Shown here in pieces: positions 48,925 through 54,220 of a DNA stretch of 64,000 nucleotides. The stretch is taken from positions 12,666 through 76,665 of the forward strand of contig CACWHK010000004.1 of the NCBI GenBank assembly GCA_902760755.1, given 5' to 3'. A model generated the notes under the pieces. The model ran no database searches and had not been told where the DNA came from. It was given only the letters and a program-made list of their open reading frames with translations. The DNA comes from an uncultured Lachnospiraceae bacterium. GTDB lineage: Bacteria; Bacillota; Clostridia; Lachnospirales; Lachnospiraceae. How positions within the stretch are numbered: the first letter of the stretch is position 1; each line of letters begins with the position of its first letter. Both the position numbers and the translations under genes were made by a program.

Positions 48925-48956
48925 CCAATACATACTTGATTTTATGGAGGTACGCA

Positions 48957-50141
48957 ATGAAGAAGAAGCAGGAGGGGGACAGACTTACGATCTGTCTGGA
49001 TGGACGAGTAGATTCGACGAATGCAGCGGATTTTGAAAGGGAATTGCTGGAGGCAGCTGCCGGTGCGTCCGGTGAAGATATTATACTGGATGCAGAGGAA
49101 CTGGAGTATATTTCCTCGGCGGGCCTACGGGGGTTGATGAAGCTGAGAAAACAGACGGGCAGGTCCATGTCGATCGTGAATGTCTCGCCGGATATATATG
49201 AGATCTTTGATACAACAGGGTTTACGGACCTTTTTGATGTGAAGAAGCGTCTCCGCAGTATCAGTGTCGAGGGGTGTGAGAAAATCGGAAGGGGTGCAAA
49301 CGGAGAGATCTATCGTCTGGACCCGGAAACCATAGTGAAGGTATATACAGGTGTCCGGAATTCACCGGAGAAGATCGCACACAACAGAGAGCTTTCCAAG
49401 AAGGTGTTTACCCATGGAATTCCTTCCGTAATACCCTTCGATATGGTAAAGGTCGGGGATGATTATGGTCTGGTATATGAAATGCTTTCCGGCGGTTCTC
49501 TGGCGAATCATCTTTCCAAACATCCGGAAGAGATTGAACTTTACGGAAAGAAGCTTGCAGAGCTTCTCCGTACGCTTCATGAGACAACCTTTGAGAAGGG
49601 AGAGCTTCAGGATGCCAGAAAGCCGTATCTGGATGATATAGAGCTTCTCCGAAACACCGGATGGTATACGGATGCAGAGGCGGATCGGCTGATCACGCTT
49701 GTGGAGGGGATCCCTGAGAGGAATACATTTATCCATCAGGATTTCCATCCCGGAAACATCATGCTGATGGACGGAGAACTGGTACTGATCGATGTGGATG
49801 ATTCGGGAATCGGGCATCCCATGCTGGATCTTATGGGTATGTATCAGGTTTATGTTGCTGCGGCCAAAACAGGATGGACAAAGATGATGATGGGGCTTGG
49901 AGAGGAAGAGTTCCGGCCTCTTTGGAATACGGCACTTCTGGAATACCTTGGGAAGGAACATGTGGATGATATTCCGGAGATCAACAGAGTGCTTCAGGGA
50001 TATACAAGAATGAAGCATATCCGCGGTGTGGCTACATCGCCGCAGGTTCCGGAGGAGCTGAGGAAGCCTGCCGTGGAAAGGGAAAAGGCTGAATTGTTTG
50101 ATGTGATAGACACGTTGTATCCGGTTCCGAAATGGTTCTAA
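48957..50141 (+). CDS. STAS (anti-anti-sigma) domain fused to an APH/choline-kinase-like phosphotransferase
   Basis: GRVDSTNA, YISSAGLR (STAS); GRGANG, IVKVY, HQDFHPGNIM, LID (kinase). Confidence 0.88.
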   Translation: MKKKQEGDRLTICLDGRVDSTNAADFERELLEAAAGASGEDIILDAEELEYISSAGLRGLMKLRKQTGRSMSIVNVSPDIYEIFDTTGFTDLFDVKKRLRSISVEGCEKIGRGANGEIYRLDPETIVKVYTGVRNSPEKIAHNRELSKKVFTHGIPSVIPFDMVKVGDDYGLVYEMLSGGSLANHLSKHPEEIELYGKKLAELLRTLHETTFEKGELQDARKPYLDDIELLRNTGWYTDAEADRLITLVEGIPERNTFIHQDFHPGNIMLMDGELVLIDVDDSGIGHPMLDLMGMYQVYVAAAKTGWTKMMMGLGEEEFRPLWNTALLEYLGKEHVDDIPEINRVLQGYTRMKHIRGVATSPQVPEELRKPAVEREKAELFDVIDTLYPVPKWF

Positions 50142-50168
50142 GCTGGATGGACTGCAGATTAAAGGATT

Positions 50169-51008
50169 ATGATGATGGAAAAACAGGGAATTGATCTGCC
50201 GGGGATCGGAAATGCGAGAGAACTCGGCGGATATAGAATCAAAGATAAGGTGATCCGTCGGGGAGTTCTTCTTCGAACAGGAAAGCTGGATCAGGCAGCT
50301 TCGGAGGCGTTGCAGCTGTTGCAGGATAAGTACAGGCTGCAGACAATCGTGGATTTCCGGATGAGCACGGAAAAAACCGGGCAGTCAGATCCGGAGATTC
50401 CCGGGGCAGAGTATGTCCACCTTCCGGTATTTGAGATAGAGGATATGATGGACGGGGCTGATCCCGGGCTGGTGGCATTTTATATGGAACATGCAACGGA
50501 TCGAATGGCGCTGTTCGAGTTGAGCTATGAGCAAAAACTGGTGGATGAAAAGCTTTATGTCCGGTTTTTACTGGGAGACCGTGGAAAGCATGCAGTGAAG
50601 GAGTTCTTTCGGCTGCTTATGGAGTTGGAGAAAGAAAGAGCAATCCTCTGGCACTGCGCAGACGGGAAGGATCGCACAGGCTGTGCAGCCATGCTGATCC
50701 TGTTCGCTCTTGGCGCGGATCGGGAGCTGGTCCTTCGGGATTACCTTCTGACGAACGAATATAATGCCCCGATTCTGGAAGCGATACGGGCAAAGGTGGC
50801 TCCGATGAGGATGCCGGAAGATAAACTGAAGCTGCTTCTTTTTATGTCAGGGGGAGTATTCCCGGAGTATATGGATCATGCGATCGACGCGCTGTGCGAG
50901 CACTATGGATCGGTTCAGGGGTACCTTGAAGAGGAGATCGGACTGGGAAAATATGAGCTGGAGAAGCTGAAGGAGGCTTTTCTGGTAACGGATGATCATG
51001 ATCAATAA
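50169..51008 (+). CDS. Cys-dependent tyrosine/dual-specificity phosphatase (PtpB/IphP-like)
   Basis: NARELGG, DFR, HCADGKDRTG P-loop, DYLLTN. Confidence 0.92.
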   Translation: MMMEKQGIDLPGIGNARELGGYRIKDKVIRRGVLLRTGKLDQAASEALQLLQDKYRLQTIVDFRMSTEKTGQSDPEIPGAEYVHLPVFEIEDMMDGADPGLVAFYMEHATDRMALFELSYEQKLVDEKLYVRFLLGDRGKHAVKEFFRLLMELEKERAILWHCADGKDRTGCAAMLILFALGADRELVLRDYLLTNEYNAPILEAIRAKVAPMRMPEDKLKLLLFMSGGVFPEYMDHAIDALCEHYGSVQGYLEEEIGLGKYELEKLKEAFLVTDDHDQ

Positions 51009-51023
51009 TAGTGGAGGTTAATT

Positions 51024-52232
51024 ATGAGAAAGAATCTTGAAGGAAACAAGCTGACACTGTTCCTGGAAGGACGTATTGACACAAACAATGCTCCGGAGGT
51101 TGAAAAGGAATTGCTGGAAGCGGTGGCCGAGGCTCAGGACGCGGAACCGGTCCTGGATGCAGAAGGATTGGAATATATATCATCTGCAGGACTTCGCGGG
51201 CTTATGAAGCTGAGAAAACAGACAGGAAAGGTTATGTCGATCAGGAATGTGTCCTCTGATGTTTATGAGATATTTCAGACTACGGGCTTTACAGACCTTT
51301 TTGATGTGCAGAAACGTCTTCGTGTGATCAGTGTTGAGGGCTGTGAAAAGATCGGAGAAGGCGGTAACGGGAAGGTGTTCCGTCTGGATGAAGATAAGAT
51401 CGTGAAGGTTTACAAGCCCTGGATGCAGATGGATGCGATCGAAAGGGAGAGGAGCTTCGCAAGAACCGCATTTATCAATGGTATTCCGTCTGTGATCGCA
51501 TACGATACGGTGAAGGTTCCGCAGCCGGAGGGAGAGTGTCTGGGAATCGTCTTTGAGATGCTGGATTCCGATACACTGGGGCATGCCATGGCGAAGAATC
51601 CGGAGAAGCTTCCGGAGTTTGTGGATCGGTATGTTGAACTTGCAAGATCGCTGCATACCACGCATGTTCCGGAGGGCAGTTTTACAAAGATTCAGGATGT
51701 GGCGCATGGGTATGCTGATAATCTGGGTCAGTGGTGCTCCAGGGAGGAGATTGAGCTTTTGCATGGGATTGTGGATTCGATTCCTGAAGCGGATACGGTG
51801 GTACACAATGACCTGCATCCCGGGAATATCATGATCCAGAACGGGGAGCTGATCCTGATCGATATGCCGGCAGTAACCATGGGACCCCCGGTCTGTGATC
51901 TGATGACGATCTTCCGTGATATGATCTCTGCGCCTAAGAGGAGTCCTGAACATGTCGTTCACAGCATCGGCATGCCTGCAGATCTGATACTGAAAGCCGG
52001 AAATCTGTTTTTCATGAAGTATACCGGAATTACCGATCCGGGTGAGCTTGAGGCATTCTACAAGAAGCTTGGACTTCTTTATTCGGTTGACGTTGTCCTG
52101 TTTACCGGATCCGGAAACAAAACTGCCATGGAAAGGGCGGATCAGATCATGAATAATCTGCTGCGTCCGATTGTCATTCCGAACGAGCAAACGATCAAAT
52201 ACCTGTTCCGGACACTTGTAGAGATGAAGTAG
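51024..52232 (+). CDS. Second STAS-APH-like kinase fusion (paralogue)
   Basis: GRIDTNNA, YISSAGLRGLMKLRKQTG, GEGGNG, HNDLHPGNIM. Confidence 0.88.
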   Translation: MRKNLEGNKLTLFLEGRIDTNNAPEVEKELLEAVAEAQDAEPVLDAEGLEYISSAGLRGLMKLRKQTGKVMSIRNVSSDVYEIFQTTGFTDLFDVQKRLRVISVEGCEKIGEGGNGKVFRLDEDKIVKVYKPWMQMDAIERERSFARTAFINGIPSVIAYDTVKVPQPEGECLGIVFEMLDSDTLGHAMAKNPEKLPEFVDRYVELARSLHTTHVPEGSFTKIQDVAHGYADNLGQWCSREEIELLHGIVDSIPEADTVVHNDLHPGNIMIQNGELILIDMPAVTMGPPVCDLMTIFRDMISAPKRSPEHVVHSIGMPADLILKAGNLFFMKYTGITDPGELEAFYKKLGLLYSVDVVLFTGSGNKTAMERADQIMNNLLRPIVIPNEQTIKYLFRTLVEMK

Positions 52233-52364
52233 TAAAACGGGATTGAATGGCGGGGAGAAGACCGGGATTTTCACTATGTTGTGATTCTGTTGTAGTCTGT
52301 CTGCTATACTTCCCTTTGTTCCGTGATTCACAGGGGATTTGTATTTCGAAAGGAAAGGGTGAAA

Positions 52365-53957
52365 ATGAGAAGGAGAAGAATAACAACGATGGTCATCGCA
52401 GGAATGCTGGCTTTATCCATGGCGTTCACCGGCTGTGAGAAGAAGACGGAGGGTGATACCTCTGCGGCGACAGAGGAGGACAGCACGGTAGCTGCCACGG
52501 AGGAAGGTACCAAAGATGTGGCAACTGAGGATCCCTCTACAGAAGCAACAACCGGGGAGGGCGCCACGGAAGCTGCAACTCCAGGCGGCGGTACAACAGA
52601 TTCAAAGATCACACTTGAGAATATCCGTTCCTATGTGGTCGGGATCGATGAGCCGGTGGAGCTGAAGGACGGATCGAAGCAGCCGTTGATCAACTTCGAT
52701 AATGCGGCGACCACACCGTCACTGACTCCGGTTTCGGAGCTGGTGGAGGAGGAACTGAAGATGTACGGCTCCGTAGGACGCGGGTTCTCTCAGAAGTCCG
52801 ATCACTCCACAGACTTTGTGTATCAGACCAGGCAGAAGGTCCTCGAGTTCGTGGGTGCGGATAAAGAGAAAGATGAATATTGTTGCGTCTATGTGAATAA
52901 CACGACGGATGGTCTGAACAAGCTGGCTTCGGCACTGGTCAAGGATAAGAATGATGTGGTCCTTACCACCCGGATCGAGCATCATTCCAATGATCTTTCC
53001 TGGCGTGAAAGAGGTACGGTGATCTACGCTGAGGTAGATGAGAAGGGACGTGTAAAATACGAAGATATCGAGAAGCTTCTGAAGGAGAATAAGGTCAAGA
53101 TCGTCTCCGTAACGGCGGCTTCCAATGTAACCGGTTATGTAACAGACGTACACCGCGTGGCAAAGCTGGCGCATCAGTATGGTGCGATGCTGGTTGTGGA
53201 CGGTGCGCAGATCGTTGCTCATCGCAAGTTTGAGATGAAGGGTGCCACTCCGGAGGAGGATGTGGATTTTCTGGTATTCTCTGCACATAAAATGTACACT
53301 CCGTATGGCGGAGGTGCCATCGTCGGCAAGCAGGAGCTTATGAATAATACCATGCCGGATGTATATGGCGGAGGTACGGTACATATCGTGGCTGACAGTC
53401 GTCAGGAATACAAGAACGCGCCGGAAAGCTGGGAGGCAGGTTCTCCGAACTATCCGAGTATCGTAGGACTCAGCAAAGCCATCGACATCCTTGAGGAGGT
53501 TGGTTTTGACAAGATCGAAGAGCATGAGAAGGTACTGAACCGGAAGTTGATCGATGGTCTGAAGAAGTTTGATAATATCATCATCTATGGTGATACGGAG
53601 AACATCGATGACCGGGTGGGCGTTGTCACATTTGACTTTACGGATTTGAATTCCTATTACCTGGCGGTTGCCTTGAAGGAGTATGGTGGTGTGGCTACCC
53701 GCCGCGGATCCTTCTGCGCGCATCCCTATGTGTGGAGACTGAAGGGGATTTCGGATGATCAGGTTGGAGCCTTTGAGAACTGCGAAGCTGCTTATACTCC
53801 GGGTATGGTCCGTGTAAGCTTCGGGATCTATAATACCGAGGAAGAAGTAGATAAGTTCCTGGAGGTGCTTCCGAAAGCCATCGAGGAGGGAAAGAAGGAA
53901 GTACAGAGGCTGACGGATTCCGATCAGCTGGTTAAACCGATCGATCCTACCTTCTAG
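52365..53957 (+). CDS. Lipoprotein-type class V aminotransferase / SufS-like cysteine desulfurase
   Basis: MRRRRITTMVIAGMLALSMAFTG-C lipobox and T/E-rich linker, then NFDNAATT, EHHSND, DGAQ, SAHKMY, EAGSPN, RRGSFCAHPY, RVSFGIYN. Confidence 0.85.
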   Translation: MRRRRITTMVIAGMLALSMAFTGCEKKTEGDTSAATEEDSTVAATEEGTKDVATEDPSTEATTGEGATEAATPGGGTTDSKITLENIRSYVVGIDEPVELKDGSKQPLINFDNAATTPSLTPVSELVEEELKMYGSVGRGFSQKSDHSTDFVYQTRQKVLEFVGADKEKDEYCCVYVNNTTDGLNKLASALVKDKNDVVLTTRIEHHSNDLSWRERGTVIYAEVDEKGRVKYEDIEKLLKENKVKIVSVTAASNVTGYVTDVHRVAKLAHQYGAMLVVDGAQIVAHRKFEMKGATPEEDVDFLVFSAHKMYTPYGGGAIVGKQELMNNTMPDVYGGGTVHIVADSRQEYKNAPESWEAGSPNYPSIVGLSKAIDILEEVGFDKIEEHEKVLNRKLIDGLKKFDNIIIYGDTENIDDRVGVVTFDFTDLNSYYLAVALKEYGGVATRRGSFCAHPYVWRLKGISDDQVGAFENCEAAYTPGMVRVSFGIYNTEEEVDKFLEVLPKAIEEGKKEVQRLTDSDQLVKPIDPTF

Positions 53958-54061
53958 TTCGTTTCATCTCAGAATCATTCTTTCTATACCTGCCGTCGTG
54001 CCGGGACTGAACTCCACGACGAAACTCATGAGGAAGGAAGAATAAACAGGTAATTCATGAT

Positions 54062-54096
54062 AAGGGCTGTCAGTTCGTCAATGACAGCCTTTTTTC
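54062..54096 (+). terminator. Intrinsic terminator
   Basis: GGCTGTCA/TGACAGCC followed by a T tract. Confidence 0.8.
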
Positions 54097-54220
54097 TTTT
54101 GCCGCCGTTATGGAATATCCACATGCAGGGATGTACCTGGTGGTTAGTGTGTGGCAGGAATGGCAGAACGAACGTTTTTTTCTAAGCCGGACCACATTAA
54201 TATAAAAATGTCTTTTGATG

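Follow-up and report, generated by a model that had tools for sequence, protein, structure and literature searches.

Can a cysteine desulfurase work on the outer face of a Gram-positive cell? Sulfur enters Fe–S clusters, thio-cofactors, and tRNA by way of cysteine desulfurases, which to our knowledge are regarded as strictly intracellular and as passing their persulfide on to partner proteins. The question is raised by a gene in a 64,000-nucleotide stretch of the genome of an uncultured Lachnospiraceae bacterium (contig CACWHK010000004.1; the whole stretch is referred to here as the window). Its product, the window protein, joins a lipoprotein signal peptide and a low-complexity tether to a class V domain of the SufS fold that depends on pyridoxal 5′-phosphate (PLP). 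An earlier note, made from the letters of the window, had proposed a surface-anchored PLP enzyme acting on extracellular cysteine, cystine, or selenocysteine, and all of the structural elements it described (signal, lipobox Cys24, tether, PLP lysine, and persulfide cysteine) were recovered. Computational comparison with the wider family favors a predicted surface-tethered cysteine desulfurase whose gene has passed horizontally between Gram-positive inhabitants of the ruminant gut, a reading to which we assign a probability of roughly 0.55. Surface desulfuration of cysteine, the most likely activity here as judged from sequence comparison, is not described for the desulfurase family: no relevant paper came up in a literature search for cysteine desulfurases that are exported, extracellular, periplasmic, or secreted, nor in one for a dockerin combined with a desulfurase. 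If the reading is true, sulfane-sulfur chemistry also takes place outside the membrane in an anaerobic gut ecosystem, which would matter for the cycling of sulfur and the production of hydrogen sulfide in the rumen, and possibly for the handling of toxins.

Export signal and spread of the family

The N terminus of the window protein has the features of a lipoprotein signal of the general secretory (Sec) pathway that is processed by signal peptidase II (SPII), namely a basic n-region with four Arg, a hydrophobic h-region, and a lipobox F-T-G-C whose Cys lies within about 35 residues of the start. The assembly of the window (2.58 Mb, 88% complete) encodes both Lgt (PF01790, E 9e-64) and signal peptidase II (LspA; PF01252, E 4e-42). 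No TatC of the twin-arginine translocation (Tat) system was found in this 88%-complete genome, and export is therefore probably by Sec. Tat export, a candidate prompted by the four Arg, was ruled out because no TatC was found and the n-regions of homologues are Lys-rich; the window protein has no consensus Tat motif despite its four Arg, and its closest homologues carry Lys/Arg n-regions. The tether that follows (14 Thr, 10 Glu, 9 Ala, and 7 Gly) varies in length and sequence among homologues, whereas the flanking parts are conserved.

The signal is a property of the family. A heuristic based on a positive n-region, a 12-residue hydrophobic window, and a lipobox pattern, which is not a trained predictor, assigned a signal peptide to 136 of 143 full-length members (54–88% identical; 87 signals with a lipobox, 49 without) and to 6 of 84 more distant relatives (35–50% identity). 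Six of the seven failures among the members were truncated or borderline signals; in four a lipobox is visible, but the sequence starts inside the h-region, P0049 has a truncated hydrophobic stretch, and P0123 carries a Tat-type signal. Among the 120 closest database clusters (58–88% identical), the N terminus is a signal peptide in almost all. Whether orthologues keep the lipobox was one of the checks named in the earlier note, and the closest ones do: the Cys has the same position in P0002–P0012, L013, and L014, and the tether behind it varies freely.

In a maximum-likelihood tree, 44 exported sequences formed one clade with a support of 98 in the Shimodaira–Hasegawa-like approximate likelihood ratio test (SH-aLRT), and its neighbors were an Atopobiaceae branch of Tat-type lipoproteins and a signal-less branch. 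A topology grouping all signal-bearing rows, including the Tat-type Atopobiaceae, was not rejected by the approximately unbiased test (p-AU 0.83), and a single gain of export is compatible with the data. Only 3 of the 136 signals fit the twin-arginine pattern. Two Coriobacteriales sequences nested within the Bacillota clade carry twin-arginine lipoprotein signals, and TatC was found in the genomes of both as well as in that of the Atopobiaceae member; it was not found in two of the three Bacillota carrier genomes tested. The combination of a twin-arginine signal and a host Tat system was restricted to members from Actinomycetota. Since Tat-type signals occur in hosts with TatC and Sec-type signals mostly where TatC was not found, the signal type appears to track the export machinery of the host, a pattern that would be difficult to account for if export were of no consequence. 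With Sec-type signals on the Bacillota enzymes and Tat-type ones on those of Actinomycetota, the family allows a natural comparison on the same enzyme. In some members, the anchor is replaced or extended by dockerin or Big_2 modules, which belong to the cell surface or the cellulosome. The conserved signal in a monophyletic clade, its exchange for a Tat type, and the members with dockerin or Big_2 modules all agree with the surface anchoring proposed in the earlier note, which is strongly supported at the level of sequence.

Members with at least 55% identity were found in 44 species-representative genomes, 35 of which have ruminant labels in their records; the titles of the remaining nine name no habitat. 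The member of lowest identity is from Lachnospira (L055), and all other species-representative members are at least 61% identical. The exported family spans about ten Bacillota families plus Coriobacteriales, with carriers in Oscillospiraceae/Ruminococcus, Lachnospiraceae, Erysipelotrichaceae, Anaerovoracaceae, Eubacteriaceae, Acutalibacteraceae, Christensenellales, and Coriobacteriales, and families and phyla are intermixed on short branches of the gene tree. In the same GTDB family as the window's host, no orthologue was detected at E ≤ 1e-100 in 150 other genera; the gene is thus not a lineage trait. All-against-all clustering of open reading frames from 45 loci yielded no conserved neighbor in the exported clade, and the neighbors differ even between orthologues that are about 80% identical over their full length. 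Together, the ruminant labels, the mixing of families and phyla in the tree, the missing orthologues in the host's own family, and the unconserved neighbors indicate what is probably a stand-alone gene, horizontally spread among Gram-positive ruminant-gut bacteria. DNA of the window was present in gut metagenomes of cattle and goats; these come from 15 studies, among which may be the one that produced the assembly.

Catalytic domain and sulfur chemistry

The conserved segment of the window protein begins at residue 82 and runs into an Aminotran_5 domain (PF00266, residues 109–498, E 1e-84); the closest solved relative is SufS from Bacillus subtilis (E 1e-57). An AlphaFold2 model of residues 80–530, computed with a 43-sequence alignment as input, had a mean predicted local distance difference test score (pLDDT) of 91.1 and a predicted template modeling score (pTM) of 0.90. 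Foldseek matched this model to SufS structures (5xt5) with template modeling (TM) scores of 0.82 (query) and 0.91 (target) at about 30% identity. With SufS from B. subtilis and SufS/CsdB from E. coli, the window protein shares the fold (TM 0.82–0.91, identity about 31–33%) and, at aligned positions, the PLP Lys, the acid/base His pair, the D-G-A-Q motif, the carboxylate-binding Arg, and the catalytic Cys. Complete or near-complete conservation within the family was seen for Lys309, Cys451, the carboxylate-binding Arg483, D-G-A-Q, and the E-H-H-x-N motif, which includes the acid/base His. In alignments, Cys451 coincides with the catalytic Cys both in SufS from B. subtilis and in the genome's own SufS (33% identity to the window protein).

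The differences from SufS are concentrated around the catalytic Cys and in the context of the enzyme. Among the features of the SufS family, the class V fold with the PLP Lys and the catalytic Cys at the aligned position are present, whereas the short Cys loop with His-His before the Cys is not; the two His are replaced by Ser/Ala-Phe in the exported family. Unlike SufS, the window protein carries an export signal and a tether, has a 17-residue insertion behind the catalytic Cys with a second invariant Cys, and lacks a SufE/SufU partner and a suf operon context. A long post-Cys loop is common to the wider family; Cys473 is confined to the core exported clade and is missing from the basal exported member L054, the Tat-type Atopobiaceae clade, and most cytosolic relatives. 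The Cys loop has the lowest pLDDT (78–84) in the C-terminal half of the model, which would fit a mobile loop.

Further clues to the chemistry come from fusions and relatives. In one subclade, comprising four clusters that are mutually 70–75% identical over their full length, a rhodanese domain is inserted between signal peptide and desulfurase, and the six-residue active-site loop of this domain, C-R-[ST]-G-x-R-S, is preserved in each of the four. Domains of this type are known to accept persulfide sulfur from cysteine desulfurases, the ThiI and MOCS3 pathways being examples. The cytosolic, COG0520-like relatives (from Peptococcaceae, Dehalobacter, Desulfitobacterium, Wukongibacter, and others; 40–44% identity) share with the exported family the long post-Cys loop, the conserved N-terminal segment, and an F-C-A-H-P core around the catalytic Cys. 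They differ from it in having no signal peptide, in that many have a Cys two residues before the catalytic Cys and not Cys473, and in that 10 of their 33 loci have a gene for a DsrE2-like sulfur carrier (PF13686, E 1e-57) immediately downstream. The invariant Cys451 and Cys473, the rhodanese fusion, and the DsrE2-like neighbors point to persulfide chemistry that would take place outside the membrane; persulfide chemistry as such is reasonably supported by these comparisons. The action on cysteine proposed in the earlier note thus has indirect support from the invariance of all mapped SufS catalytic residues, the rhodanese fusion, and the DsrE2 neighbors of relatives; cystine is an unlikely substrate in the strongly reducing rumen.

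In two members, the signal peptide is followed by an AhpC/TSA-like domain of the thioredoxin fold (L033:9167-10100, and residues 1–170 of P0116). Its CxxC motif is replaced by W-D-T-N-G and W-Y-P-D-G, and the domain is probably redox-inactive. The fusion was dropped as evidence for a redox role because CxxC is lacking in both examples, which leaves the redox conditioning suggested in the earlier note unsupported.

The DsrE2-like pairing was observed at loci L072, L074, L075, L076, L081, L082, L085, L086, and L087 (at about 11.4–11.9 kb in most), from Peptococcaceae, Gracilibacter, Dehalobacter, Wukongibacter, Halanaerobiales, and others; at L090, the DsrE2-like gene is on the other strand, at a distance of about 5 kb. 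The cytosolic desulfurase and the DsrE2-like gene look like an undescribed two-gene sulfur-relay module.

Mechanism and alternative explanations

In the mechanism that we propose, the precursor would cross the membrane unfolded via Sec, Lgt would attach the lipid to Cys24, LspA would make the cut, and the mature enzyme would hang from the outer face of the membrane on its 57-residue flexible tether. Outside the cell, the SufS-fold domain would fold, dimerize, and bind PLP at Lys309. Free L-cysteine would be converted to L-alanine, with the sulfur held as a persulfide on Cys451 in the long, probably mobile loop, and Cys473 in the same loop probably receives or resolves this persulfide. The sulfane sulfur would then pass to small thiols or be released as sulfide in the reducing rumen fluid, or, in one subclade, pass to the fused rhodanese. 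Only a reducing habitat, such as the rumen, makes an ecto-enzyme that depends on cysteine plausible. As to the purpose, our guess is the release of membrane-permeant H2S or sulfane sulfur at the surface and its assimilation by two CysK enzymes; sulfide released there could be assimilated because the window's genome has two CysK genes above the cut-off. A search of the genome for ATP sulfurylase was negative with a model that misses enzymes of the CysDN type (control matched in 5 of 14 genomes). A more elaborate version remains tentative: an ecto-desulfurase shared by horizontal transfer among rumen Gram-positive bacteria, which would be the first PLP enzyme exported by Sec and obliged to acquire its cofactor outside the cell, would run a persulfide relay (from Cys451 to Cys473 and in some members on to rhodanese) on the surface or the cellulosome, generating an extracellular sulfane-sulfur pool for sulfur supply or for the trapping of thiophilic toxins such as plant-derived cyanide.

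The least certain step of the mechanism is the loading of PLP outside the cell, which the Bacillota enzymes would have to accomplish together with folding since so few of the family's signals are of the twin-arginine type and no TatC was found in the host. It raises the question of whether a Sec-exported, unfolded PLP enzyme can gain its cofactor extracellularly. PvdN and PtaA from Pseudomonas, the only exported PLP enzymes traced in the literature, are the relevant comparison; both tailor pyoverdine and are not known as persulfide-forming desulfurases, and PvdN has a class V fold. As predicted for the window protein, PvdN is a PLP enzyme outside the cytoplasm (periplasmic according to its NCBIfam description), and the Actinomycetota members of the exported family are likewise of the Tat type. 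According to a passage of PMC13673990 that cites Ringel et al. (2016, 2017), PvdN and PtaA are Tat-exported periplasmic enzymes into which PLP is inserted before transport. They thus leave the cytoplasm folded, whereas the window protein most likely uses Sec. The statement of the earlier note that cysteine desulfurases and selenocysteine lyases are normally cytoplasmic does not extend to all class V PLP enzymes, as these Tat-exported examples show. A closer relationship to PvdN is not apparent: its model NF051467 was not among the best 25 of 54 NCBIfam matches of the window protein and gave 18 bits with a cytosolic relative of the exported family (cut-off 650).

Several points weigh against a surface-tethered cysteine desulfurase. 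No precedent for PLP loading after Sec export was found, the known exported PLP enzymes using Tat. The rumen already holds free sulfide, and the benefit of more is doubtful. No gene for an acceptor protein is conserved near the exported members in the 45 loci. The top NCBIfam model of the window protein is SufS (TIGR01979), but its score of 299.9 bits is below the trusted cut-off of 475.1; because of this score, the replaced His-His, and the longer Cys loop, the substrate could differ from that of SufS. One homologue, from a metagenome-assembled genome (MAG) of a rumen Anaerovoracaceae bacterium (L052:9995-11317), is nested in the exported clade, is 61% identical, and keeps Cys473, but a stop codon two codons before its first Met leaves it without a signal peptide; the enzyme could have returned secondarily to the cytoplasm, or the copy could be decaying. 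Three bovine metatranscriptome runs yielded contigs (151–234 nt, 98–100% identical, inside the coding region) that are compatible with transcription, for which they are weak evidence as DNA carry-over is possible.

Some of these points would be accounted for by an exported PLP lyase for another rumen amino acid, which would detoxify or harvest its substrate before uptake and in which the cysteines would be regulatory or structural. Plant-derived S- or Se-substituted cysteine, cystine, cysteine sulfinate, or a lanthionine-type compound are the candidate substrates. The score below the SufS cut-off, the replaced His-His, the longer loop, and the lack of a conserved acceptor gene fit such an enzyme, as does the rumen-restricted, horizontally spread distribution, which would be expected if the substrate were linked to diet. 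However, Cys451 is invariant at the persulfide position, all mapped substrate and PLP contacts of SufS are kept, and both the rhodanese fusion and the DsrE2 neighbors of relatives point to sulfane-sulfur transfer. We therefore consider a lyase of this kind unlikely.

The option of a selenocysteine lyase outside the cell, raised in the earlier note, is weakened; such an enzyme would liberate selenide at the surface and so serve the scavenging of selenium. Enzymes of the SufS/CsdB type also act on selenocysteine (PDB entry names), and the window protein matches the NCBIfam model SclA with 138 bits, which is below the cut-off. Against this, no SelD above the cut-off and no selenium-utilization pathway were detected in the 88%-complete genome, and the associations with rhodanese and DsrE2 are features of a sulfur relay. 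Selenide release is very improbable on these grounds.

That the signal is non-functional or an annotation artefact, with a start further downstream and a cytoplasmic SufS paralogue as the product, would be consistent with the internal Met9 and with the nested homologue L052 that has no signal. However, a Shine–Dalgarno sequence precedes Met1, and n-region, h-region, and lipobox are conserved while the tether diverges, which places the start upstream of the lipobox as in the earlier note; the change of signal type with the host's export machinery and the dockerin and Big_2 fusions, sensible only outside the cell, make an artefact hardly credible. A non-catalytic surface receptor that binds vitamin B6 or an amino acid for scavenging or sensing on an enzyme fold is just as improbable, because residues that binding alone would not need (Cys451, the His pair, and Arg483) are invariant and no transporter gene is conserved alongside, even though the combination of lipid anchor and flexible tether recalls the solute-binding proteins of Gram-positive ATP-binding cassette (ABC) transporters and PLP would have to be captured outside the cell in any case.

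Gene features, paralogues, and neighborhood

Features of the gene for the putative surface-tethered desulfurase (positions within the window)
Feature	Position	Strand	Basis
Open reading frame, 530 residues	52365-53957	+	ATG at 52365, stop 53955-53957
Shine–Dalgarno sequence, purine-rich, 5-nt spacer to ATG	52350..52359	+	direct sequence reading
Lipoprotein (SPII-type) signal peptide, residues 1-24	52365..52436	+	Arg-rich n-region, hydrophobic core, F-T-G-C
Cys24 codon of the lipobox	52434-52436	+	
Low-complexity tether, residues 25-81 (57 residues), Thr/Glu/Ala/Gly	52437..52607	+	composition; variable among homologues
SufS-fold class V PLP domain, residues 82-530	52608..53954	+	PF00266, AlphaFold2 model, Foldseek
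Lys309, PLP Schiff-base lysine, S-A-H-K	53289..53291	+	invariant in alignment, aligned to SufS lysine
Cys451, predicted persulfide-forming catalytic cysteine	53715..53717	+	121/121 homologues
17-residue insertion after the catalytic Cys, residues 461-477, not in SufS	53745..53795	+	gap in BLASTP versus the genome's own SufS; family alignments
Cys473, second cysteine, inside the insertion	53781..53783	+	121/121 homologues
GC-rich hairpin and T-run, likely intrinsic terminator	54065..54099	.	sequence reading; about 110 nt past the stop

The putative surface-tethered desulfurase is not the only class V enzyme in the genome. The same contig carries, about 57 kb upstream, a canonical sufS flanked by sufD and a sufU-like gene; a nifS/iscS-type gene adjoins thiI, and there is one more class V gene as well as a desulfurase of the encapsulin-cargo type (628 residues) beside a shell gene and cysE. 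Because the genome keeps its housekeeping sufS, nifS, and the encapsulin cargo desulfurase, the exported enzyme is an additional, fifth paralogue. No suf or isc genes were found within about 10 kb of the gene, in line with the statement in the earlier note that no such partners are nearby.

The next gene in the 3′ direction encodes a LysR regulator and is convergent. As a hairpin with a T-run follows the desulfurase gene and its neighbor is convergent, the gene looks monocistronic, and the terminator is perhaps shared with the LysR gene. An automatic promoter and terminator scan gave nothing above shuffled sequences, and this hairpin was not among its output.

On the 5′ side are two STAS-kinase fusions and a gene of the tyrosine phosphatase family; the fusions (STAS-APH) flank the phosphatase just upstream of the desulfurase gene (48936-52232). 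STAS-kinase fusions also occur 0.3–6 kb from the desulfurase in two other rumen MAGs (L034:4932-6176 and L047:16229-18862), and small STAS proteins are encoded near it in three further loci. Across the 45 loci, STAS or STAS-kinase genes recurred in 6 and ABC ATPases in 11, and a functional linkage to either was rejected on account of the few loci and the varying distances. At the locus of the closest Lachnospiraceae orthologue (L014:4544-6016), the immediately downstream gene encodes a 491-residue protein with a lipoprotein signal that has no counterpart in the window.

A bovine metatranscriptome contig of 246 nt (X20, depth 23.5) joins positions 52280-52298 to 53974-54118, a junction as expected for a strain without the whole gene; with 19 letters on one side it is below the 31-letter rule and does not count as a bridge.

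The encapsulin cargo desulfurase of the genome offers a further comparison. Like the window protein, cargo desulfurases of family 2A encapsulins are SufS-like enzymes sent to a special compartment by an N-terminal extension; unlike it, their disordered N-terminal domain targets a protein shell in the cytoplasm and does not lead across a membrane. The cargo model NF041166 gave 221 bits with the window protein, far below its cut-off of 800 bits. The cargo gene itself lies on contig C41 (locus L002, 1474-3360, minus strand) between a cysE-like gene and the probable shell gene, and its product has a long disordered N terminus; the layout is that of a family 2A encapsulin sulfur-storage system, here in the genome of a rumen member of the Clostridia.

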